Translations under genes and position numbers: made by a program
Source: Candidatus Hodarchaeota archaeon
GTDB taxonomy: Archaea > Asgardarchaeota > Heimdallarchaeia > Hodarchaeales > Hodarchaeaceae
Length of the DNA: 39,010 bases
Assembly: GCA_016840035.1 (NCBI GenBank)
Contig: JAEOTC010000092.1
Span: forward strand, 1 to 39,010
Direction of reading: 5' to 3'
Notes under the pieces: model-generated
What the model saw: only the letters and a program-made list of their open reading frames with translations
Database searches by the model: none
Told to the model about the DNA's origin: nothing
In this document: positions 4,475 through 31,105 of the stretch, in pieces
Layout: each line of letters begins with the position of its first letter
How positions within the stretch are numbered: position 1 is the stretch's first letter

Positions 4475-6430
4475 TTATTGATCATTTTCCTCGTCTAAAT
4501 AATCTTCACTTGACTCCTGAGGTGCAACTGGTGTAATCTCTTCAGTTTCAGAAGACACGATCTCTTCTATTGGAGTCTCTGAATCATCAACTATTGACTC
4601 TTTTGGTGTATCAACACTTGAGGGAAGATCATAATCCTCTGTTGGGGTTTCTGAATCATCAACTATTGACTCTTCTGGTGTATCGACACTTGAGGGAAGA
4701 TCATCATCCTCTGTTGGAGTAAATGTGGTTGTTGATGTCTCTCTCGTTTTAATTGCTTTATAGATAATATACATTATTCCAAAGAAAAATCCTGCATAAA
4801 ACGCGATGGATTCCACATTTTCAAACGTACCTACAGCGGAGGATAAGATTGTCGTTAATCCAGTAATTGTTCGAAGGGGAGCGTCTGGTATTGCTAATTC
4901 ATAGATATCTCCAAGAATATTAGTGATAATCAGGACAAATGAGGTTGATATAAGTAGAAAGAACATTTCCCCTCTATCCTTGAATCGTGGGGTTACTAGA
5001 GTAACAGAGAGAAACTTGAAGGCACCAGAAAATATGAAAATGATAGGAAGGATTAAAAATGGTAAAAATTCTAATGTAGGCCAAATATCAGCTAAAAATC
5101 CTGAAATAGGCAATACTACTTCGTTATAAAAGAGATAGAAGAAGTTTGGAACCGTTAAATCAATATCGAAATGCAATTGATTTTTTAACATTTCAACGAT
5201 CTCTCCAAAACTATCCCATAAGAGGGATACCCACACACCGAACATAACAAGATATTTAGAAAATACCATTACTCTGGGGGGAGACCTGGCGAGTACCTGT
5301 CCACTTCGAGCTACTTCAATTCCTCTCGACAAAGCTGTAAATATTGCAATGAATGCAAATCCTTCAGCAAAACCTACCACCAATGTGGCAGCGATTGTAA
5401 TTATGATGAAATCTAGTTGAACAAGATCCTCAAAATCCACAATTCGCGTAATAAATGAATCTAGATAGGTGTTAATAATTTCAGCGATATCTATCGCTTC
5501 ACCAGTAAGTAGTTGAATTGTATCCCATCCTGCCCATAGTAATGTTGGGAGGATCCACAAAGTAGCAATGAGGGGAATAATTACAAGTAAATTTACACTA
5601 GTAATAAAGGCAGTTATTTTTACTCCTCTCCACACAATTAAGAAGATTGTTTTTAATACTTGATAGATCCACCAAACCACTGCAAGAAGATACACAATCA
5701 GAACTATTTGCCCAATTGATGTGCTTTGAAGTTGTGCAACAAAAAATGATAGAAAAGGGATAATAATCCATGCGAACAACTTATAAATTGTTCTAACTCC
5801 TTCTTTTTCTTTCTCTTCTATTTCTTCCTCCTTTTTGAATTTTCCAACAACTCTACGCCGTGCAAATGTTGTTAAAATGATAAGAAAGACAATAATAGAG
5901 AAGGCAATAATTAGGAGAAAAAAGGTACCAAAATATAGATTACGCGCTGTTTCATAGAATTTCCTACCCTCAACATCAGAAAGTCCCTCAATCTCGAGAT
6001 CGAAATAATCCAGAATTCCACGCATAAATATTACTGGTAAAAGTTGCAAATATGTTTCTTGTAGGAATACATCTAGGAGAAGATAGATTGCGGAACAAAA
6101 TGACAAAGCAAGCACAGCGAACAACCAAAAACGGGTGTTATAAACCATTTTTCCTGAATCATCTCTTAGCCCAAACTCATTAGCCATGTCAAAAAGGACA
6201 ATTTTCGAAAACCCGAATAAAACAAGGAAAAAACACAAAGATGATAAAATAATGGCAATGACATATTCTGTATTACCATAAGTAACTGTAGACAGATCCT
6301 CAATACTAGCAGAAATAACCATGACAATTATCAGCAAGATTGTAATGACTAAGATCCCGATAATCTTAATCATCTGCTTAGCGAGATACTCTCTCCATGG
6401 AATTCTAGTGACTTTCTCTTTAATTGACAA
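4475..6430 (-). CDS. Polytopic membrane protein of unknown function with acidic low-complexity C-terminal tail
   Basis: 651-aa ORF, TTG start with GAGGA upstream; roughly a dozen hydrophobic segments; D/E/S/T/P-rich tail. Confidence 0.75.
   Translation of the reverse strand: MSIKEKVTRIPWREYLAKQMIKIIGILVITILLIIVMVISASIEDLSTVTYGNTEYVIAIILSSLCFFLVLFGFSKIVLFDMANEFGLRDDSGKMVYNTRFWLFAVLALSFCSAIYLLLDVFLQETYLQLLPVIFMRGILDYFDLEIEGLSDVEGRKFYETARNLYFGTFFLLIIAFSIIVFLIILTTFARRRVVGKFKKEEEIEEKEKEGVRTIYKLFAWIIIPFLSFFVAQLQSTSIGQIVLIVYLLAVVWWIYQVLKTIFLIVWRGVKITAFITSVNLLVIIPLIATLWILPTLLWAGWDTIQLLTGEAIDIAEIINTYLDSFITRIVDFEDLVQLDFIIITIAATLVVGFAEGFAFIAIFTALSRGIEVARSGQVLARSPPRVMVFSKYLVMFGVWVSLLWDSFGEIVEMLKNQLHFDIDLTVPNFFYLFYNEVVLPISGFLADIWPTLEFLPFLILPIIFIFSGAFKFLSVTLVTPRFKDRGEMFFLLISTSFVLIITNILGDIYELAIPDAPLRTITGLTTILSSAVGTFENVESIAFYAGFFFGIMYIIYKAIKTRETSTTTFTPTEDDDLPSSVDTPEESIVDDSETPTEDYDLPSSVDTPKESIVDDSETPIEEIVSSETEEITPVAPQESSEDYLDEENDQ
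4570..4720. repeat. 72-bp in-frame tandem duplication (2 copies; 24-aa unit PTEDxDLPSSVDTPxESIVDDSET)
   Basis: CTGAATCATCAACTATTGACTC starts at 4579 and again at 4651; copies differ at only a few positions. Confidence 0.9.
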
Positions 6431-6557
6431 TATTCCTCAATCCTTAACAATAATGATAAGAACTCTCGTAAGATTTTATTAGATTAACCTTTTATGTCTT
6501 GCTTCCAATTACAAGTTAAACATTGTTGTATCGAGAAACAGTGGAGTCGGGTATTTC

Positions 6558-7106
6558 ATGGATTATACGGAGAAAGCTAAATACCACATGAAAGTGATAG
6601 TATGTGGTACAGGGGCAGTCGGAAAAACTAGTCTTGTTCGCAGATTTGTTGAAAATAAATTCGATTTTAACTATTTACTCACCATCGGAATGGAACCCTC
6701 AAATCGTAAATTACAGGTGAATGGTTTTTTAGTAAATTTAATTATTTTTGATGTTGCAGGACAGGAACGTTTTCAAACTTTGAGAGAAGTTTTCTTCCGG
6801 AAAGCGAATGGAGCATTACTTGTATTCGATTTAACTCGGCCTGATTCTCTTGAAGAGTTATACGAATGGAAGGCCCAAATTGATGAACGGTTAGGAAAGA
6901 ATAAGATCCCTCTTGTTTTGATTGGAAATAAAGCTGATCTCGAGGATATGATCCAAATCGATTATCAAGTCTTAGAAGACACTGTTATTCCTGATTTTCA
7001 GCCTGTGAAATATTTAGAAACCTCAGCCTATCAGAATCATAATGTACATGAGGCATTTTCAATAATTTCTAATGAGGTACTGAAACGGCAAGGGATTATA
7101 AAATAA
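6558..7106 (+). CDS. Rab-like small GTPase (Ras superfamily)
   Basis: G1 GTGAVGKT, G2 LTIG, G3 DVAGQERF, G4 NKAD, G5 ETSA; no C-terminal Cys prenylation motif. Confidence 0.93.
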   Translation: MDYTEKAKYHMKVIVCGTGAVGKTSLVRRFVENKFDFNYLLTIGMEPSNRKLQVNGFLVNLIIFDVAGQERFQTLREVFFRKANGALLVFDLTRPDSLEELYEWKAQIDERLGKNKIPLVLIGNKADLEDMIQIDYQVLEDTVIPDFQPVKYLETSAYQNHNVHEAFSIISNEVLKRQGIIK

Positions 7107-7142
7107 CTGTAGTTTAAGAGGAAAAAAGAAAACCAAGGTCCA

Positions 7143-7913
7143 CTAAATTGGTTTCCATCCAATCTTATTAGATCCTTCATCTCTTAAAACTCTTATATTT
7201 TGAATAGGATCCTGTACAAATGCTTTGGATAGTTTATTGAGATCATCTGGATAATAGGGAGGATTCCATTTAATTCCAATCTCTGATTGATAAATTTCTA
7301 AGGGGACACCAATATCAATTACATAGAAGTCTCCTAGATATTTTTGATCCAGAAGAAGTAAACCAGTTTTTACAAAAGCTATTGTCATTGTCGCTAAGGG
7401 GTGAAATTTACTAAAATTTTCACCTGTTGTGATATCTATTCCTGAAGGACAATCCAATGAGATAACAGGATCATTACTTTGAAAGAATGAAAATACCTGT
7501 TCAGTTAGCTGGTCTTCCCGATACTCAAAGTTATATCCCAGATAACAATCTAAGATAATCGTGTTTTCACTACTTTTTGCAGGAATGCCTTCTTTTATTT
7601 CCACACCCACCATTTTAGCTCTTATCAATTGATCCTTAAGTGTTTTATTTGCAATTTCCTCCCCTTTAGGAAGAAAGATAGAGGTTTTACAGCCCCACGC
7701 AGCCAATCTCCTTGCTGCCACCATACCTCCCCCACCATTGCCTCCCGAACCACACACAATCAAATACGAAGTATTCAGATTTCCCATAAGAAAAGCCAAA
7801 CGTGCAAGATTAGCTCCTGCATTTTCCATCATTATTGACAAAGAAATACCTCGTTGTTCCATCAACCGATCTACTTGAATCATTTGTTCACGGGTTATTC
7901 CTGGCAGAACCAA
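7143..7913 (-). CDS. nnrE: NAD(P)H-hydrate epimerase (stand-alone YjeF N-terminal domain)
   Basis: MIQVDR...MMENAG, VCGSGGNGGGGMVAARRL, ILDCYLGY, VISLDCPSG, ATMTIAFVKTGL, DIGVP motifs of YjeF_N. Confidence 0.9.
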   Translation of the reverse strand: MVLPGITREQMIQVDRLMEQRGISLSIMMENAGANLARLAFLMGNLNTSYLIVCGSGGNGGGGMVAARRLAAWGCKTSIFLPKGEEIANKTLKDQLIRAKMVGVEIKEGIPAKSSENTIILDCYLGYNFEYREDQLTEQVFSFFQSNDPVISLDCPSGIDITTGENFSKFHPLATMTIAFVKTGLLLLDQKYLGDFYVIDIGVPLEIYQSEIGIKWNPPYYPDDLNKLSKAFVQDPIQNIRVLRDEGSNKIGWKPI

Positions 7914-21799: not shown

Positions 21800-22168
21800 T
21801 TGGAAAAGGAAAAAATAACAATTCTTGAATATTTGGCCACCTATCAAATTGCCTCTCCGCAACAACTCAACCATTACTTAGTGGTTACTCGTAAAACAAT
21901 GAAAACAACATCGTCGATTTACAAATATATCCGTGAATTAACTGTTGAAAATTACATTGAAGAAGTTGCACCAAATCATAGACAATTCATGATTACGGAT
22001 AAAGGTCGATTAGTATTAAGATGTCAAGGTAGGAAAAATATTGAGAGGCAAAGAGAATGTCCTATAGTGAACATCTTCATATACAATCACTCTTCCAATA
22101 ATACAAAATTCCCTCCCTATTATAATTTTCATCCTTATCAACATCCATCTAGAGGTAGGTACTGGTGA
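21800..22168 (+). CDS. Winged helix-turn-helix protein
   Basis: ILEYL...SPQQL...SSIYKYIRELTVENYIE...FMITDKGRLVL; TTG start with AGGAGG SD; GTGA overlap with the next gene. Confidence 0.75.
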   Translation: MEKEKITILEYLATYQIASPQQLNHYLVVTRKTMKTTSSIYKYIRELTVENYIEEVAPNHRQFMITDKGRLVLRCQGRKNIERQRECPIVNIFIYNHSSNNTKFPPYYNFHPYQHPSRGRYW

Positions 22169-22698
22169 TAGATTTACTCGCTGCAAGGGGATCTATTGAA
22201 ATCCTCATTTATCTAAAAAATCAAGAAAACCCTGTATCAATCCCAGGAATAAATAGCTATTTCCAGTCGAAGAAGTCGAAACTAAACTTAACCTCAGCCA
22301 CAATTTATCGTAGAGTAAAAGAACTGCAATTAGCAGGTATTTTAGAGAAAACCACTAATAATGCAATTGAATTAACGAAGTATGGAAAGGAAAAACTATC
22401 TGACGTTCAGGAAAGGGAATATCGCCTTAAAAGGTCACGTCGAGAAATTCTCAATGTAATCCAAGAACAGGAGGGAATTAGTGTCAGAGAACTACAGCAT
22501 TATGGATTTTCTCCAACAACGATCAAAAGATCGATTGACGATTTAGAAGAACTGGAATTAATCAAGCAGTACGTAGAGGAGGCGATGAAGCTTTCTCCTA
22601 AAAAGGTCGGTCGTCCAAAAAAACGTCATCAATTGACTAAAAAGGGGTTAAAAGTACTAAAAAAACAAGAAGAGCTAGAAGAAGAGTTAAAAAAATAA
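22165..22698 (+). CDS. Tandem double winged-HTH DNA-binding protein
   Basis: Two wHTH units: SATIYRRVKELQLAGILE..IELTKYGKE and SPTTIKRSIDDLEELELI..GRPKKRHQLTKKG. Confidence 0.85.
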   Translation: MIDLLAARGSIEILIYLKNQENPVSIPGINSYFQSKKSKLNLTSATIYRRVKELQLAGILEKTTNNAIELTKYGKEKLSDVQEREYRLKRSRREILNVIQEQEGISVRELQHYGFSPTTIKRSIDDLEELELIKQYVEEAMKLSPKKVGRPKKRHQLTKKGLKVLKKQEELEEELKK

Positions 22699-22712: not shown

Positions 22713-23999
22713 ATGAAAGAAACAAACACATTGCAAAAAAATATAAAAATTCGAGTATCTCCTTCAAGTGAGTACGCACTAGGGAGTGGAGATACTCATC
22801 TCTACACACAACTAGAACTAGAAGCATTAGAGGAAATTATTGAAACAAAAGATAGAGTTTCACTTAATTTAAGTGTTGTATTAGATCGATCTGGTTCAAT
22901 GGGGGGATCTAAGATTGAAAAGGCAAAGAAGGCTGTGGAGTTTATTGTAGAAAATTTATCCAAGTCAGATATTTTTTCACTAGTAATCTATGATGATGTC
23001 ATCGATACCATTATAGAGGCAAACTCAATTGCGGAAAAAGCTACAATTCTTGCAAAAGTAAGAAGCATAACAGCAAGAAACATGACAGACCTTCATGGTG
23101 GAATGATGGAAGGAGTAAAACAAGTTCGTCTAAACACGAACCTAGAGTACAGAAATGTTGTCTTACTTCTATCAGACGGGTTAGCAAACGTTGGAATCAC
23201 CTCTAGAATCCAAGTAGGAGAAGCAGCAAAAGCAGTTCATGACAACGATGGGATTACAATTAGTACATTTGGAATTGGTGATGATTTTGATGAGGACATG
23301 CTTGTGAATATTGCCGACTCAGCTTCTGGTGAATTTTACTACATTAAATCGGCAGATGATATTCCAAAATTTATTGAAAAGGAATTCAAGGGTCTTTTAG
23401 CTACCATAGCGTCAAATATCAAGGTTAGAGTACATCCAGCTTCAGGAGTCAACATTGAGCGAATCTTAGGAGTGTCCCTTCAAGATCAAAAAACTCAACC
23501 ACTAAAACTAGGAGATCTTAGGTCTGGGAATAATCGGTTAGTAATCCTAGACCTGATGCTGTCACCTGGAAAGTTGGATACTAAGCAGGAGATCGTGAGT
23601 TTTCAAGTTGAATGGATTCCTGTACAGTCAGGTACGGAAACCATGAGTCAGCAATTTCCTTGTTCTATAACTTATACAAACGATGAAAAATTACTAGAAA
23701 CTGAAAATCAGAGCGTTTTAGATAACGTTGTGATATTAGAAACTGCCTTGGTACGAGAAAGAGCTATCCATTTGGCAGATCGAGGCGAATTTTCTGCTGC
23801 TCAAAAGTTAATTTTATCCCAACAATCGAAATTAAAACACCGATCTGACTTAGTTGGCGCATCCCCTGAGCTAAAATCAGTAATGTGGGAAAACAAGGCA
23901 TTATTATCTAATACACTCGATAAAAAGTTGTACACAAGGTCTTCAAGAAAGTTCGCCTCAAATATGATGTATTCTCTTAGAAAACAACGAAAGAAATAG
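22713..23999 (+). CDS. von Willebrand factor type A (vWA) domain protein, YfbK/'Ca-activated chloride channel homolog' type
   Basis: Intact MIDAS: VVLDRSGSM, T in NMTDL, LLLSDGLANVG; STFGIGDDFDEDML; C-terminal beta-sandwich and helix AIHLADRGEFSAAQKLI; AAGGAG SD. Confidence 0.9.
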   Translation: MKETNTLQKNIKIRVSPSSEYALGSGDTHLYTQLELEALEEIIETKDRVSLNLSVVLDRSGSMGGSKIEKAKKAVEFIVENLSKSDIFSLVIYDDVIDTIIEANSIAEKATILAKVRSITARNMTDLHGGMMEGVKQVRLNTNLEYRNVVLLLSDGLANVGITSRIQVGEAAKAVHDNDGITISTFGIGDDFDEDMLVNIADSASGEFYYIKSADDIPKFIEKEFKGLLATIASNIKVRVHPASGVNIERILGVSLQDQKTQPLKLGDLRSGNNRLVILDLMLSPGKLDTKQEIVSFQVEWIPVQSGTETMSQQFPCSITYTNDEKLLETENQSVLDNVVILETALVRERAIHLADRGEFSAAQKLILSQQSKLKHRSDLVGASPELKSVMWENKALLSNTLDKKLYTRSSRKFASNMMYSLRKQRKK

Positions 24000-24842: not shown

Positions 24843-26942
24843 TTATGCTATCTTACTTAGAATTACCTCTATCTGAAATACATGATTAGATTCTGTAATT
24901 TTAAAGAAAGGAAATAATGATGTTCCTTGATATTGTTCTTCAAATCCGATCTCGGTCTTTGTAAACGAATATACGGGAAAAACCATACATTTTACTGACT
25001 CTGGGAACGTAACAGACAATGAAACCTTCTCAAGCTCATTTAAGTCTTGAATCATAAAAAAAGTGCATTGCTCTTCAGTAACAAATTCACTTAGGTTAAA
25101 TTTCCTCTCATTTAAATATCCATGAGTTTTATAAGGGTAAGAAGCTCCAAGAAAGTTCATTTCTGGAGAGAAATAAAAAATATTTTCCCCCTTCCCTTCT
25201 GGAAAATTGATCTCATAATCGACTATTAGTGAGGATTCTTGGAGACAGTAGGATTTACTCACAGAGCATGGAATATCCTCTTCGTTTCTTCCCAGAATCT
25301 TACCGAACCGATTAAGACTTAGTCTTCCTTTCGGAACATGCTCTATCGTATATTTCTGATTTGTAAAATTACCGATATCCTTATATTGATTTGATTGATA
25401 TTTTTGGATTGTGGAAATTTCACGAAAGAAATGATCTTGAAATGTCCACTTCTCTATACTATCTTCAGCCACAGCCGCATCATCAGTATGATAAGCTTCG
25501 AGTTTTCGTCTAAGGACATTCTGAAAGTCATATGTCCCTTTCTTAAGATTTAAAGAAAAAACAGATCCTCCCCTTAGTGATGATACAAAGCAAGAAATGC
25601 TTTTATTTTCTAAAATACCGTCAAGTTGACCATCTAACAATACATCTTGAATTTTAAGTTCAGGAAGGATGATAGCATTATCCTGACACGCACGATCGAT
25701 TAAATATTCTGCTGTATTCACGAATTTCAGACAGGCGTGCCGTAGAAATCTATAATAGATTCCACCAAACATTCCTGACCAGTACGAATCATTTGACTGA
25801 CTTGCTAGGATATTGTCCCAGATTTCATTTGATTCCGAAATCGATATTTGAGATGCGATTCGATTTAGTTTTTCTCTACAATATAACATCCTTTTGTGCA
25901 TTACATTCGATTGTGAGTACTTCACGAGAAAATTTTGCCAGATTGACCCTTGGGTAAACATTAAAACGTCTTCTGCATTTGGAATGTCGTTTTCTAATGC
26001 TTTCGTCCTTAAATTTTCAATTCGCTTTCGTAATGGTGTAGGAAGTGCCCAAATTGCCATCTTGTCATATGAACTTGTCGGTAAGTAGATGAGTCCTTGT
26101 GAACCATGATTTTCCATGTATTCACTTATCAGAACAGATTTTATCCAGCTATGTTCAAGAATCGATTCAAAAAAGCTATCCATCCAGCCTTTTGTTCCAT
26201 CATATCCCGAAACATAACATATATCATGAGTTGTACGATCACCCGCTGGCCAGACTCCCATTTTTTCAGCATCTGAAATCATCACAACTATTTTCTCGTG
26301 AGATTGATCACATGCCTTCTTAAGATACTCAATGGATTCTGAGGGCGATTTCCATGGCACAAAATAGCGTATGGATTCATTAATTGGAAAAATCGTTACT
26401 GAGTTTCCTTGATACTCAGTTTCGTACGTATAAAATGTTTCTTCTTCCGATAATCCAATTATATGGAGTAAATAATCATCAATGAATGTGTATTCAATAC
26501 CTAGCTTTTGGAGAGTTGAAGGTAAATCCGGTACCCACACTCTTTCTGCTAACCATATCCCTTTTGGAGAGATACCATAATTCTCTTTCCACCAATCAAC
26601 CATCATTATTATTTGTCGGAGACGATCTTCTTCAGGAATAATCGCAAGAATTGGCTCATAAAACCCTCCTCCTATAATTTCAACCTGTTTATTAGCATTT
26701 AGCTCGGAGATTATATCTAAAAATTCAGGGTGGTTATTTTTTAACCAAATAAGAAGGGGCCCACTAATATGAAGGTTGATTTTTATTTCTGTATAATTTG
26801 CAATCGTCCTAAAAAGGGGAAGATATGCTTTTTGATACGCTTCCTCAATAACCCATGGAAGATTACCTACAGGTTGATGCATATGGAATACAATCGGAAA
26901 ATAAACTGAACCTTGGTTTGAGTGATTCGTCAAGCTCTTCAC
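24843..26942 (-). CDS. GH57 alpha-amylase / 4-alpha-glucanotransferase
   Basis: GH57 conserved regions HMHQP, GGGFYEPIL, WLAERVW (nucleophile Glu), SDAEKMG (acid/base Asp), ASQSNDSYWSG; C-terminal beta-sandwich ending YQGTSLFP. Confidence 0.93.
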   Translation of the reverse strand: MKSLTNHSNQGSVYFPIVFHMHQPVGNLPWVIEEAYQKAYLPLFRTIANYTEIKINLHISGPLLIWLKNNHPEFLDIISELNANKQVEIIGGGFYEPILAIIPEEDRLRQIIMMVDWWKENYGISPKGIWLAERVWVPDLPSTLQKLGIEYTFIDDYLLHIIGLSEEETFYTYETEYQGNSVTIFPINESIRYFVPWKSPSESIEYLKKACDQSHEKIVVMISDAEKMGVWPAGDRTTHDICYVSGYDGTKGWMDSFFESILEHSWIKSVLISEYMENHGSQGLIYLPTSSYDKMAIWALPTPLRKRIENLRTKALENDIPNAEDVLMFTQGSIWQNFLVKYSQSNVMHKRMLYCREKLNRIASQISISESNEIWDNILASQSNDSYWSGMFGGIYYRFLRHACLKFVNTAEYLIDRACQDNAIILPELKIQDVLLDGQLDGILENKSISCFVSSLRGGSVFSLNLKKGTYDFQNVLRRKLEAYHTDDAAVAEDSIEKWTFQDHFFREISTIQKYQSNQYKDIGNFTNQKYTIEHVPKGRLSLNRFGKILGRNEEDIPCSVSKSYCLQESSLIVDYEINFPEGKGENIFYFSPEMNFLGASYPYKTHGYLNERKFNLSEFVTEEQCTFFMIQDLNELEKVSLSVTFPESVKCMVFPVYSFTKTEIGFEEQYQGTSLFPFFKITESNHVFQIEVILSKIA

Positions 26943-26959
26943 ATGAGAAAATGGACTAT

Positions 26960-27748
26960 TCAGATAATAAGCTGTTTGATTTCAGCGATTTTTGATTCCA
27001 CTGTAGTAATTGTATCAGAGGGGGCAATCTTAGGATTCGCGTCAATTAACAGTAATAATCCTTCACCTAGAATATAAACAAAGATATTTGAAACGCCACT
27101 AACAGCAAGAAAGAACTCGGGTTGTTCTAAATGGGCAGCAAAAGCTCCTCGTATAGCACGAACAGCGGCAGGAAGAATCTTTGGATCCATTTGATTAACT
27201 ATTACTGCTCCCGTGAAAGAAGAAACACAGGCACCCTGAATTGCTTCTTCTGTTGATTTCCAACTTAAGAGTACTTCATCAACGGATTGTTTCATTGATT
27301 CTCCCATATACCGACTTTCCCCAGTCATAACCGTTAAAATGGCTTCGTCAAAGTCTTGTTTCTCTTTTTTTGTTATCCGAATTGATTTTCTACCAAATTT
27401 ATATGAAAAACTACCCAGGAATAAAGTCATCAAGGTTCTAAGTTTAAATTCTATATCCAGTAGTGATGCTGAAGCCGAAGATACCAATGCGAAAAGACCT
27501 TCACCTCGAACAATGCCAGCGATCCGCATTGAAGCGAAATCAACATAGAAAATTTGGCCTGGATCAATTTGTTCTTCCTTCAATCCTTGAGAAAGATCAA
27601 AAGCTGATTGCAACAATGTAAAGATTTGTTTGGGAGAGAAATCATCAGTATCCTTTGAAGGACGAAAATCCTTCGAAATTAATGGACGTCCTTTATCTGT
27701 GAATACAAAGAAACCTAAAAAGATTTCAAGCTCATCAAATGAAACCAT
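26960..27748 (-). CDS. Longin-like + roadblock/LC7 two-domain protein
   Basis: N-half FFVFTDKGRPLISKDF / IFTLLQSAFDLS / IFYVDFASMRIAGIVRGEGLFALVS / IEFKLRTLMTLF (longin-like); C-half VDEVLLSW..IQGACVSSFTGAVIVNQM..FFLAVSGVSNIFVYILGEGLLLLIDA..IAEIKQLI (roadblock-like). Confidence 0.75.
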   Translation of the reverse strand: MVSFDELEIFLGFFVFTDKGRPLISKDFRPSKDTDDFSPKQIFTLLQSAFDLSQGLKEEQIDPGQIFYVDFASMRIAGIVRGEGLFALVSSASASLLDIEFKLRTLMTLFLGSFSYKFGRKSIRITKKEKQDFDEAILTVMTGESRYMGESMKQSVDEVLLSWKSTEEAIQGACVSSFTGAVIVNQMDPKILPAAVRAIRGAFAAHLEQPEFFLAVSGVSNIFVYILGEGLLLLIDANPKIAPSDTITTVESKIAEIKQLII

Positions 27749-27754
27749 TTGTTT

Positions 27755-28297
27755 TCACTCTCCTAATATTAACTTGCCCATTTGAACAAAAGCGTCTTCT
27801 ACCTTAGAGCCAGTTTTTGCTGATGTAGTAATGAATTCTTCTGCTTCTAATTTTTTCATTATTTCCTCTCGAGAACCAGGTACTTCTTCTTTAGCGAGAT
27901 CTTCCTTATTCCCAATAACAATGATTTTGGCGTTAGGACTCTGTTCTCGTACATCATCTCGCCATCTCTCGAGTTTTGTAAATGTCTCCTCTGTCCGAGA
28001 TAAATCAAAGACAAGAAAAACACCATGGGCTTTTTTCAGGTATAGGTGACGAAAATTAGTAAATCCAGATTGACCAGCTACATCCCAGATCTGATAGATT
28101 AACTCCTGTTTTCCACCATCATGAGTATCTAGCATTACAGTTTTGGATAAGAAGTCAACTCCTAGTGTGATTTGATATCCCTCTTCAAAAAAATTGTCCA
28201 CATAACGTTTAATCAGGCTAGTCTTCCCCACTTCTGGTTCACCGACTAATAACAGCTTAAAGGCAAATTTACCCGATTTTCCTTTCTTTTTCGGCAT
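27755..28297 (-). CDS. Rab-like small GTPase with N-terminal polybasic extension
   Basis: G1 GEPEVGKT, G2 ITLGVDF, G3 WDVAGQ, G4 NKED, G5 TSAK; starts MPKKKGKSGK; GAGGAG SD. Confidence 0.94.
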   Translation of the reverse strand: MPKKKGKSGKFAFKLLLVGEPEVGKTSLIKRYVDNFFEEGYQITLGVDFLSKTVMLDTHDGGKQELIYQIWDVAGQSGFTNFRHLYLKKAHGVFLVFDLSRTEETFTKLERWRDDVREQSPNAKIIVIGNKEDLAKEEVPGSREEIMKKLEAEEFITTSAKTGSKVEDAFVQMGKLILGE

Positions 28298-28369
28298 GGA
28301 ACTATCTCCTCTTTCTTTTTGGGCAATAGAATTGAGATTATTTTAACGATTTTCTCTGAAAAGTATTTT

Positions 28370-28384
28370 CTTAAAAGGATTCGC
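28370..28384 (-). promoter_or_regulatory. Possible BRE/TATA promoter of the GTPase operon
   Basis: Minus strand GCGAATCC-TTTTAAG about 75 nt upstream of the GTPase ATG. Confidence 0.35.
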
Positions 28385-28519
28385 CAATTTCGACGAATTA
28401 TAACGTATTAGGTTAATATTATATTAATAGATAATTATGATGACTTATCAATAAATTGCATTCCATTACTATTACATGATCTTGAGTACTTCTCCATTAA
28501 TAAAGACTCGTGAACACCT

Positions 28520-31105
28520 ATGACGTCTCTATGTCAAATCAGTTTCAATTTACAGGCAGAAGGGAAGGCAAAAATTGAATCCTTCCGTTTTAATGTTAAT
28601 ACACTCTCGGATCCGTCCGTAGAATTTCCTAGCTTCCCAAAAGATAAAATGTTACGAGCTTTAAGTGAACATAGCCGGGCACAACGGTATGGATTCGCTC
28701 AAGGCCATTTGAAAAATCTCAAATTTAAAAAATGCGACGAATTTAGTAGTGAAGAAGAAATTCACATACTGATGTTAGTTTTTGAAAAGATCGGTCCTAT
28801 TTCGCTAGTTTTTAGGAACAAATTTGAATATTTGGTCTTAGAGGGCATTGACTCCCAATATAACTACATTGGTTATAAAACACTTGTAAATCTTCTTATT
28901 CAGGTTATCAAACCAGAAACGGAGCCCATCCAAGGATTAGGAAGGATTAAAGCCGTTTATCATGCATCCAATACGCAAGAATTGGCACGGAAAGCATCCT
29001 ATGTTCCAATTCTCGATACAACGGAAGGTAAGATTACTCTATTTACGTTAAGTATCATTTTACCTACACTAGTCGTTATCGTTCTTCCTCTTGAATGGCT
29101 AGATGAAATGTTCTCATATTTGTTGGTGTTAGGTCTTCTTTCAATACTAGTGTGTTCATATTCAATAATCAAGCGCTCTTTACGTCATGCACCTCTCGGT
29201 ATAATATCATTGATTGCTTCATATCTGATAACTGAAACTTTAATACATTTTGATATACTAACAGCTGGGATTAATCCATGGGGAATTTTCAATAATATTT
29301 CCAGGCAAAATCTGATTGGAATCTTACGAAATCAACCAATCGTAAACTCAATTGGTTCTCAAATATTCATTGGGTTTGACCTCCTTGGTGCGATTGTACC
29401 TTTCCTTGATATCATCCTCTTAGGTATCATTCCATTTACCATTGGTGCTGGATTATCAGGATTATTGGAGAAGGTTGAAAAATTCTCTATACGAACTATT
29501 GCTGTTAAATCATTCTTTGCAGCATTATTTCTAATTTTTATTATTGCTATTCCAACCACTTATCATGCATTTGGAAAAGGTATGGAAGGTACACTCTATG
29601 CAAGTATAGGTGTTACTCAAACTGCAGAAATTTTTTCAGAGAGGTTTTTTGCTAATCTTGAAGATAATATTGATGAATTATGGACTCTTATTCATTCTGC
29701 TCAATATAATTTTGATAAAGCGGATAATTCCTTTCGACAATTTGCTGAAAATCCTCTTATAGCATCTCTTCTTCCGCTAATATTTCCAGAAGTGGCAGGA
29801 ATCCCCCTTAAGGATCTTCCAAAGATACTAGCCTTAACTGATGTTGTTTCTGAATCATTAGGTTATGTTCCAAACTTGTTATGGTCTTTGACAAATTTAG
29901 AATCAGGGATAAACCTTACTTTCTCAATTCTACAGGACTCCATTGGTCAATCCACAGTAGGTGGGTATGGGGCTTCTTCTGTAGCAGTATATGATCCATC
30001 AATGCGTGATGCTTTAAACCTCCTGATTCAGGGTACAAATAACCTTTCATCAATTGAAGCTCCCTTGTTAATTCTTTTCTCACAAGCGAGAGAGAAAATA
30101 GATTATTCAGTCTTTGCGGAAATTTCCTCAGTTCTAACGGAACTAGAACTTGTACTCCCTATCTTGATTACTATTTTAGATGGATTAGTTCCTTGGGTTA
30201 ATAGTACATATAAATTAACTCTTGTCATTGACGATCTATTTGATTTTCAATTTGAAAGTGCCTATTTACAGAGTGCGGTAGATGATTTTAATCGATCAAC
30301 ATCAATTTCCGATCTCGATATTGCATCCCTACCAAATACCTCCATTGTTCCTATCAGAGACCTCTCAGAGTTTAGTACCAATCTTCACTCCGTTACAAAA
30401 TACTTCCTTTACACAATTGAAAATGGAACTCAAATGTTTCAACAGCTGAATAGTACATTGAGACTGTTTCAAGATGTAGCATTTTCTGATCCTCAAAATA
30501 TTGATGATCCCATTTGGCAAGAAATTGAGGATGGATTAAACCAAACAGAATATCATCTGAATGCAACACAATACAGCTTAGCTGAGATGAGTAATATTGT
30601 AACTTCCCAAAGTGAGCTGGATTATCAAGAGTTAAACTCTTTCCTTGGAGAACTACAAACATTTATTGATGATACGAGTACTGAATTTGATGTGGTTCAA
30701 GAATATTTCGATGCTCTTGAGGGTACATACGATGCAAGCTCTCACTTTTCTATGGGTGTTAAATTATTAAATGAAACTCTAATGGCAAATGGCACTCTTG
30801 CAGGTGATTATTCTTCGACTAGAGGGAATTTTACTCAAAGTCAAATTATCGCAAATCAAACATCAGACATCCTACTAAACATTCCAACTCATCTTCTGAA
30901 TCAAAGTGCAATTACAAATTGGGAAAACCTAGTTAAAGGAGATATTGGGAATAACTTAACTAATTCAATCTATGTTAATTCAGCAAACTGTATCGCCTTG
31001 ATTGACACAATTGTGGGTGCTGGATTTATCAATCCGCTAGATGGTTTGAGATTTGCTGAAATATTAAATGATGCAGATATGATGGATTGGAATATCTTCT
31101 CCTGA
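28520..31105 (+). CDS. Multi-pass membrane protein with large helical, sequon-rich (probably N-glycosylated) C-terminal ectodomain
   Basis: About 170-aa soluble N-domain, about 5 TM, then ~500 aa of amphipathic helices containing 15 N-x-S/T sequons. Confidence 0.72.
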   Translation: MTSLCQISFNLQAEGKAKIESFRFNVNTLSDPSVEFPSFPKDKMLRALSEHSRAQRYGFAQGHLKNLKFKKCDEFSSEEEIHILMLVFEKIGPISLVFRNKFEYLVLEGIDSQYNYIGYKTLVNLLIQVIKPETEPIQGLGRIKAVYHASNTQELARKASYVPILDTTEGKITLFTLSIILPTLVVIVLPLEWLDEMFSYLLVLGLLSILVCSYSIIKRSLRHAPLGIISLIASYLITETLIHFDILTAGINPWGIFNNISRQNLIGILRNQPIVNSIGSQIFIGFDLLGAIVPFLDIILLGIIPFTIGAGLSGLLEKVEKFSIRTIAVKSFFAALFLIFIIAIPTTYHAFGKGMEGTLYASIGVTQTAEIFSERFFANLEDNIDELWTLIHSAQYNFDKADNSFRQFAENPLIASLLPLIFPEVAGIPLKDLPKILALTDVVSESLGYVPNLLWSLTNLESGINLTFSILQDSIGQSTVGGYGASSVAVYDPSMRDALNLLIQGTNNLSSIEAPLLILFSQAREKIDYSVFAEISSVLTELELVLPILITILDGLVPWVNSTYKLTLVIDDLFDFQFESAYLQSAVDDFNRSTSISDLDIASLPNTSIVPIRDLSEFSTNLHSVTKYFLYTIENGTQMFQQLNSTLRLFQDVAFSDPQNIDDPIWQEIEDGLNQTEYHLNATQYSLAEMSNIVTSQSELDYQELNSFLGELQTFIDDTSTEFDVVQEYFDALEGTYDASSHFSMGVKLLNETLMANGTLAGDYSSTRGNFTQSQIIANQTSDILLNIPTHLLNQSAITNWENLVKGDIGNNLTNSIYVNSANCIALIDTIVGAGFINPLDGLRFAEILNDADMMDWNIFS

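Follow-up and report, generated by a model that had tools for sequence, protein, structure and literature searches.

A Rab-like GTPase and its adjoining longin-roadblock protein as a conserved gene pair of Asgard archaea, with a GH57 enzyme as a probable lineage-specific neighbour

Longin dimers serve as the catalytic platforms of the TRAPP and tri-longin-domain (TLD) exchange factors (PMC5216073). In Mon1 and Ccz1, the first longin domain (LD1) is a canonical longin, the second (LD2) is of the roadblock type and the third (LD3) is of the lamtor type (Klink et al. 2022, PMC8833172). Both LD1 domains of Mon1-Ccz1 hold switch I of Ypt7, with Tyr37 seated in a pocket and Lys38 displacing the magnesium ion (Kiontke 2017, PMC5216073), and section 6 of a recent preprint describes a Tyr-Lys/Arg motif in switch I as common to TLD substrates (Wilmes 2025 preprint, 10.1101/2025.03.27.645700). 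We analysed a stretch of 39,010 nucleotides from a Candidatus Hodarchaeota archaeon (contig JAEOTC010000092.1; the whole stretch is called the window below) in which three co-oriented genes on the minus strand encode a Rab-like GTPase, a two-domain middle protein (MID) and an enzyme of glycoside hydrolase family 57 (GH57). With somewhat better than even confidence, we read the first two genes as a conserved module composed of a Rab-like GTPase and its own LD1-type longin-roadblock regulator, most likely an exchange factor, and the GH57 gene as a neighbour within the lineage.

Asgard genomes encode dozens of Ras-superfamily GTPases together with many longin and roadblock proteins. Asgard small GTPases, longins and roadblocks, and some of their fusions and operons, are already in print. 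In the cultured strain MK-D1, GTPase genes are generally not found in operons with roadblock or longin genes, a layout that makes it hard to match a GTPase to its GTPase-activating protein (GAP) or guanine nucleotide exchange factor (Tran et al. 2024, PMC10933270). Liu et al. (10.1101/2020.10.19.343400), who count 130 roadblock-superfamily families, describe a conserved Asgard operon that likewise joins a Rab-like GTPase to candidate regulators, some of the roadblock superfamily and some with longin domains; its partners are different, however (a LAMTOR1-like roadblock protein and a DENN protein), and the portion of that preprint used here mentions neither a two-domain Mon1-like protein nor strict pairing. 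The MglA-MglB system of Myxococcus and other prokaryotic pairs also place a small GTPase gene beside a roadblock gene, with a probable dimeric platform on the switch regions, but MglB is a single roadblock domain that acts as a GAP, whereas MID has a Mon1-type longin before its roadblock domain and its GTPase is Rab-like with a normal DxxGQ motif. We found no publication on an Asgard Mon1-type longin-roadblock protein paired with a Rab-like GTPase; subscription journals lay outside the search, and supplementary family tables (Liu et al., Eme et al.) may hold such a protein.

The GTPase gene (180 amino acids [aa], 27755..28297, minus strand) is followed after 6 nt (27749..27754) by the MID gene (262 aa, 26960..27748, minus strand), and a 17-nt spacer (26943..26959) separates the TGA stop codon of the latter from the GTG start codon of the GH57 gene (699 aa, 24843..26942, minus strand). 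This arrangement, which the original prediction had described with the same two gaps, is confirmed by the list of open reading frames (ORFs). In the 14 other orthologous loci, the GTPase-MID junction measures between -11 and 8 nt when counted from the longest ORF. Related genomes keep all three as ORFs, which are therefore real genes rather than chance ones; the plus-strand ORFs inside them are short shadows of 64-74 aa.

The GTPase matches the Pfam family Ras at 9.8e-39 and Roc at 1.7e-30, with only 4.4e-8 for Gtr1_RagA, and the NCBIfam model small_GTP at 1.8e-22. The solved structures closest to it are Rab2A/2B, Rab1, Rab6 and Sec4 (~1e-28), and the Thorarchaeota Rab 7ezb follows at 2.9e-25. 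Among the 60 best solved matches listed, all but three are Rabs or the Ypt/Sec4 proteins of yeast, the exceptions being one unnamed fly chain, one chain called 'GTP-binding protein' and the Thorarchaeota Rab itself. All five motifs expected of a Rab (G1-G5; GxxxxGKT, Thr in switch I, DxxGQ, NKxD and SAK) are present, in the form of the P-loop GEPEVGKT, a Tyr-Gln pair before TLGVDF in switch I, DVAGQ with its catalytic Gln retained, NKED and SAK. The P-loop carries Pro and Glu in the places of Ras Gly12 and Gly13. The protein consists of the GTPase domain only and lacks the C-terminal roadblock domain of the Rag/Gtr type. The locus had initially been framed in terms of the Rag/Ragulator/GATOR/FLCN nutrient-sensing machinery; the far stronger match to Ras than to Gtr1_RagA and the short, roadblock-free chain lend it no support on the GTPase side, and on the partner side the nearest named relatives of MID are Rab exchange-factor subunits of the Mon1/Fuzzy/HPS1 type, not GAP longins. 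None of the 29 partner GTPases compared ends in a C-terminal Cys motif for geranylgeranylation (the GTPase of the window ends in ...GKLILGE). All 15 orthologous GTPases carry a Lys-rich (polybasic) N-terminal extension, which may give the GTPase, having no lipid-anchor cysteine, an electrostatic affinity for membranes. A second Rab/Ras-like GTPase is encoded elsewhere in the window (6558-7106, plus strand; Pfam Ras 3.5e-43; P-loop GTGAVGKT) without an adjoining MID gene, and relatives of it lie ~4.5 kb from the pair in two of the loci compared (L043 and L044).

MID belongs to a compact family. A search of 1.84 billion representative sequences returned just 22 clusters, and 69 relatives of 162-266 aa were found at E<=0.001, 64 of which are 260-266 aa long and 59-91% identical over their whole length; the sources of the close relatives are named Candidatus Hodarchaeales or Heimdallarchaeota archaeon. 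MID also aligns over its full length with its paralogues (BLAST, 1e-17 to 1e-23). Across this family the N-terminal half resembles a longin. Fuz_longin_1 (PF19036), which represents longin domain 1 of FUZ, MON1 and HPS1, ranks first among Pfam families in 11 of the 22 members of alignment A2, in 14 of the 17 members of alignment A3 and, in each of two further sets of 10 proteins scanned one by one, in 9; these sets overlap in part. The matches fall constantly on residues ~8-125 and on model positions 1 to ~100, and one member (locus L059) reaches 28.2 bits against a curated cut-off of 26.1. Residues ~1-125 of MID (27374..27748, minus strand, with approximate boundaries) are accordingly annotated here as a putative canonical longin-type domain, kin to LD1 of Mon1, Fuzzy and HPS1.

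No matches to Sybindin, Sedlin or SRX were listed in the 22 and 17 members of A2 and A3, nor to Sybindin or Sedlin in one of the sets of members scanned singly. The TRAPP longins Bet5/TRAPPC1 and Trs23/TRAPPC4 share the longin fold with MID, and their dimer is a catalytic platform for a Rab (PMC5216073); they have no fused roadblock domain, however, no Bet3-type partner is found beside the GTPase-MID pair, and Pfam Sybindin and Sedlin are missing from the scanned members. Only M1, K102, G143 and G180 are invariant across the wide family. The N- and C-terminal halves of MID, compared with each other by hhalign, give no hint of an internal duplication (probability 0.8). Elsewhere in this genome, three proteins of ~741-757 aa (contigs C40 [5663-7900], C246 and C262) show weak PF19036 matches near one end; the 745-aa protein of C40 was examined as a candidate TLD protein and rejected, being a TPR-repeat protein with a weak C-terminal longin match.

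The C-terminal half of MID resembles a roadblock domain. The profile of family residues 150-262 aligns with the Robl_LC7 proteins of the same genome (an alignment of 10 proteins that pass the Pfam cut-off) with an hhalign probability of 90.9 and an E value of 1.1e-6, over 108 columns that span the whole roadblock domain. The score of 39.2 compares with at most 13.4 for 20 column shuffles and 22.3 for the reversed alignment, and the N-terminal half of the family gives a probability of 2.5 against the same profile. Close orthologues alone produce a weak match (probability 21.2 over 34 columns), and the Pfam Robl_LC7 model (PF03259) matches none of the 22 and 17 family members at E values up to 10; in a search of the genome it lists 14 places, none of them in contig C36. 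The roadblock likeness of MID, which we place at residues ~150-262 (26960..27301 with the stop codon, minus strand) from the hhalign and structural alignments, is thus visible only by profile-profile and structural comparison. A G-E-[ST]-R motif conserved in the family (residues 143-146) lies just upstream of the roadblock domain, at the end of the linker helix.

An ESM Atlas model of P0068, a relative 47% identical to MID (pLDDT 0.73, pTM 0.55), is consistent with this division. The model aligns over 188 residues (positions 9-255) with the eukaryotic FUZ/MON1/HPS1 cluster (Fuz_longin_1/2/3) at a TM score of 0.54 by query, while Robl_LC7 clusters align to residues 131-254 and a Sybindin/Sedlin cluster aligns to residues 9-142, with a TM score of 0.75 by the row. 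The longin/roadblock fusion named in the original prediction is therefore borne out through the MID family, by PF19036, hhalign and the structural model, and can be made more specific: MID is predicted to be a longin followed by a roadblock domain, in the LD1-LD2 order of the tri-longin Rab exchange-factor subunits and without LD3. At the family level, the profile and structural comparisons support these domain identities.

The association of MID with a GTPase gene is strict. A profile of the orthologues (alignment A1) matched 25 of the 301 genomes of the phylum that were searched, including all 20 genomes of the family-level group to which the window belongs, mostly with two matches per genome. 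In the 14 orthologous loci that were compared, with ~7 kb of flanking sequence where the contig allowed, the GTPase gene lies directly upstream of the MID gene without exception. The same is true of a small GTPase gene in all 14 paralogous or distant loci with upstream sequence (16 were taken, 2 of which are cut by contig ends and could not be used for pairing), and all 6 MID genes in 5 loci from three other families follow a GTPase gene, although one of these loci (L093) is 72% identical to one already counted (L057), the two coming from sister genomes of one genus. In total, adjacency holds in 33 of 33 loci with enough sequence, or 34 pairs, the second, paralogous pair of this genome being among them. 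By way of comparison, this genome holds 47 small-GTPase ORFs among 4505 ORFs of at least 90 aa and 2 full-length MID genes, both of which lie behind a GTPase gene. With the broad model A2, matches are obtained in 391 of 400 Asgard genomes, a figure that measures the superfamily and not the two-domain family; in this genome its further matches beyond the two full-length genes are partial, covering a longin or a roadblock domain only.

FastTree phylogenies of the 34 MIDs and the 34 GTPases recover the same three major clades, and L058 is sister to the group of the window in both. Because the paralogous pairs share genomes and the trees mirror each other, the data point to duplication of the pair as a unit; the 34 pairs amount to only a few independent events. 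GTPase and MID thus probably constitute a cognate GTPase-regulator module, strictly adjacent and co-diversified, and the self-contained switch of a GTPase and a single-chain regulator that had been proposed for this locus is upheld as a conserved two-gene unit. Two loci depart from the simple pair: L058 (639-2807, minus strand) contains a GTPase-MID-MID array, and L115 (2455-5120, plus strand) a tandem GTPase-MID-GTPase-MID arrangement, the GTPases of both carrying Tyr-Lys in switch I. A tandem MID pair is what a heterodimeric regulator similar to Mon1/Ccz1 would look like, and the two diverged MID paralogues present in most genomes of the family, together with the GTPase-MID-MID locus, are compatible with a heterodimer.

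The second pair of this genome lies on contig C11 (38345-39722; locus L045, 5385-6762), and its MID is 26-28% identical to that of the window. Its GTPase has a Lys-rich C-terminal tail in place of the Lys-rich N-terminus, and the genes that follow the pair encode a 158-aa protein without a family, an M42 peptidase, a HEAT-repeat protein and an ERCC4 nuclease. The same contig encodes a 320-aa Arf-like GTPase (6862-7824; locus L118, 1363-2325, minus strand; Pfam Arf 8e-32) whose C-terminal extension matches the MID longin profile and MAPKK1_Int (MP1/LAMTOR3) weakly, giving the appearance of a GTPase fused to a longin- or roadblock-like domain. On contig C144 (7807-9958), a small GTPase ORF precedes two Robl_LC7 genes, and on C112 (88502-90463) a GTPase ORF is flanked by two such genes; neighbourhoods of GTPase and roadblock genes are therefore common in this genome.

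Judged from the sequences, MID is quite probably the cognate regulator of the adjoining GTPase. Within that assignment, analogy with the TLD proteins makes the role of exchange factor the likeliest, at slightly less than even odds overall. The TLD subunits (Mon1-Ccz1 acting on Rab7/Ypt7, Fuzzy-Inturned on Rab23 and HPS1-HPS4 on Rab32/38) share with MID the apparent order LD1-LD2, the partnership with a Rab-like GTPase and, for the partners in sister lineages, the Tyr-Lys pair in switch I. They differ from it in size (about 450-650 aa, compared with 262 aa), in possessing LD3 and in forming heterodimers of two paralogous subunits through LD1 and LD3, no heteromeric partner being known for MID; moreover, MID is encoded in an operon with its GTPase, and the GTPase of the window has Tyr-Gln in place of Tyr-Lys/Arg and no prenylation cysteine. 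In the strict sense, MID lies outside the TLD family, since it has no LD3 and its partner departs from the substrate motif, but its way of working is probably that of the family's catalytic core. In the mechanism that we favour, MID would dimerize by way of the sheets of its longin and/or its roadblock domain, which is the general behaviour of such proteins, and the dimer would grip the switch regions of the adjoining GTPase. MID would then most likely promote nucleotide exchange, and its roadblock domain would contribute structure or docking rather than further catalysis.

Switch I of the partner GTPases bears directly on this mechanism. All of them keep the tyrosine, and the residue after it varies: Tyr-Lys is found in the partners of L057, L058, L093 and L094 and in both pairs of L115, whereas the GTPase of the window, all 14 of its orthologues and L116 have Tyr-Gln, so that the TLD lysine is missing there, and the GTPases of the paralogous group have Tyr-Ser. 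Our reading is that the pair of the window has lost or replaced the lysine step.

These substitutions weigh against an exchange factor of the Mon1 type, as do several further observations. MID of the window has no Pfam match at E values up to 10 and none in NCBIfam, so its longin assignment rests on homology to the paralogues; most family members score 16-25 bits with PF19036, below the 26.1-bit cut-off; a six-frame search of this genome with that model picked neither MID gene; and the same model gives matches at E<=1 in two control bacteria. Hidden Markov model searches of solved structures with alignments A1 and A2 returned chance-level rows or nothing. The model of P0068 is of moderate confidence, and its TM score of 0.54 is borderline. 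MID ends after the roadblock domain, with no third, lamtor-type domain, and no longer (fused or tri-longin) relatives appeared at E<=1 among proteins of 474-2000 aa, the latter being weak evidence. Finally, an adjoining GTPase gene is found in 0 of 18 loci of distant full-length MID relatives (E ~1e-23 to 1e-28) from three other families. The operon form of GTPase and MID is thus a feature of one part of the phylum, which fits the statement of Tran et al. (2024) on MK-D1. The genes upstream of these distant relatives encode unrelated proteins; the idea that they are hidden MID paralogues, forming pairs like Mon1/Ccz1, was rejected on hhalign probabilities of 0.5-0.9.

A bolder proposal, which we offer as tentative and less likely than not, extends the exchange-factor reading in time. 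MID would represent the state, in archaea, from which the subunits of Mon1-Ccz1, Fuzzy-Inturned and BLOC-3 descend. As a dimer with the order LD1-LD2 it would be an exchange factor for the Rab-like GTPase whose gene precedes its own, the Tyr-Lys mechanism would already have been in place in the sister lineages, and the two paralogues per Hodarchaeales genome would represent a first step towards heterodimers. In the boldest form of this proposal, the co-transcribed GH57 would be a metabolic output of the switch.

Two other roles for MID have to be weighed against that of exchange factor. The first is that of a GAP. The roadblock domain of MID could act on the GTPase in the way that the MglB dimer acts on MglA, or its longin could supply an arginine finger, as in FLCN, NPRL2 and SMCR8. 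The roadblock-like C-terminal half, the catalytic Gln that the GTPase keeps in DxxGQ and the arginine of G-E-[ST]-R, conserved in most of the MID family, are all what such a role would call for, and Asgard longins with GAP-type motifs have been described (PMC12290439). However, the nearest named relatives of MID are exchange-factor longins and not proteins of the FLCN/NPRL2 type, no arginine is invariant across the wide family, and the loop between strands 1 and 2 reads G-x-P instead of the GP motif of GAP longins (PMC12290439). The Pro and Glu of the P-loop add to these objections. In Ras, replacements at Gly12 or Gly13 would hinder an inserted arginine finger, and the same may apply to this GTPase. 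On balance, we regard GAP activity as unlikely.

The second role is that of a non-catalytic platform or effector that binds one nucleotide state of the GTPase and docks it, in the manner of SRX-SR-beta or of Ragulator and the Rags. In its favour, dimers of longins and roadblocks often act as platforms and catalyse nothing (Levine 2013, PMC3747258), the GTPase of the window lacks the lysine that is catalytic in the TLD mechanism, and in 12 of 14 loci the gene of a conserved membrane protein diverges from the pair. No finding counters this role directly, but catalysis is favoured by the Tyr-Lys partners of sister lineages and by how specifically MID resembles the LD1 that is catalytic in TLD exchange factors, and we consider a purely docking function quite improbable.

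The third gene of the locus encodes the enzyme. Its product matches Glyco_hydro_57 (4.5e-44), AmyA-A_glucT_m (1.2e-23) and AmyA-gluTrfs_C (1.5e-31), all above the Pfam cut-offs, and has no N-terminal hydrophobic leader. It has the same three-domain architecture as the 4-alpha-glucanotransferase of Thermococcus litoralis (chain 1k1w, E 5.4e-109), and the Glu of TERVW and the second Asp of DDGEK in that enzyme, which we take to be the two catalytic acids, are matched in conserved columns by AERVW and SDAEK. The product is therefore annotated as a GH57 enzyme of the 4-alpha-glucanotransferase/AmyA type and differs from 1k1w in being encoded behind a GTPase-regulator pair. Since the 17-nt spacer is too small to hold a promoter, GH57 is likely co-transcribed with the pair in this lineage; no Shine-Dalgarno-like sequence is seen in the spacer. 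The AT-rich, 222-nt region upstream of the GTPase (28298..28519), which separates it from a divergent gene, is the likely promoter region of the operon: read by eye, the ATG of the GTPase is preceded at 8 nt by a ribosome-binding site of the GGAG type, with TATA-like A/T-rich stretches ~40-55 nt upstream.

In the window, and likewise in 11 of the 14 other loci with the orthologous pair, GH57 comes directly after MID at a distance of 17-48 nt. No GH57 gene lies near any of the remaining 21 GTPase-MID pairs, of which 15 are from the 14 usable loci with paralogous or distant pairs and 6 from other families. The genomes of the three orthologous loci that lack GH57 are 70, 90 and 94% complete, and no orthologue of this enzyme is present anywhere in them; they contain only ~400-aa relatives at 27-28% identity. 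In the tree, the earliest-diverging branch of the group consists of two of these loci, and the third falls within the group, so that the history of the linkage is either one gain and one loss or two losses. Moreover, the 12 linked loci are kin with a long syntenic block in common, which runs from a peptidase-like gene through the gene of an 861-aa membrane protein, the pair and GH57 to that of a small membrane protein, and they count as about one event. GH57 is best read as a neighbour gained once within one clade and not as an obligate part of the switch. Of the synteny expected for all three genes, the GTPase-MID portion holds throughout the 33 loci and the GH57 portion holds only with the orthologous pair; the tie to storage carbohydrates suggested for this locus is correspondingly weak, with tight spacing in the 12 loci in its favour and the 21 other pairs and the three genomes without an orthologue against it. 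A single functional module of all three genes, with the GTPase switch controlling or reporting on the turnover of alpha-glucans by GH57, is very unlikely, because the short junctions that leave no room for an intergenic promoter are offset by the pairs that lack the enzyme, by the genomes that keep the pair with merely distant GH57 relatives elsewhere, by the common descent of the linked loci and by the lack of any other glycogen gene seen in the window.

The divergent gene (28520..31105, plus strand) encodes the 861-aa membrane protein, which has no Pfam family. It occupies the same position in 12 of the 14 orthologous loci, two of which lack GH57, and is at least as faithful a neighbour of the pair as GH57 is (11 of 14). 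It is a conserved neighbour of the pair and only a candidate member of the system. By eye, it shows several hydrophobic segments around residues 170-360, and its long C-terminal part abounds in N-x-S/T sequons. Elsewhere in the window, a VWA-domain protein (22713-23999, plus strand; VWA 2.2e-20) is preceded by two small winged-helix proteins (21800-22698, plus strand), and only the two closest genomes (L039 and L041) keep this trio beside the cluster.

The GTPase-regulator pair is the valuable part of this locus, and the GH57 linkage matters less. Here, one specific GTPase and one specific regulator-like protein, which resembles the catalytic core of the activators of Rab7, Rab23 and Rab32, are fixed neighbours. 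The pair can be expressed and assayed directly, and it thereby offers a way to ask whether longin platforms already activated Rabs before eukaryotes arose and whether the Tyr-Lys mechanism is the ancestral one.

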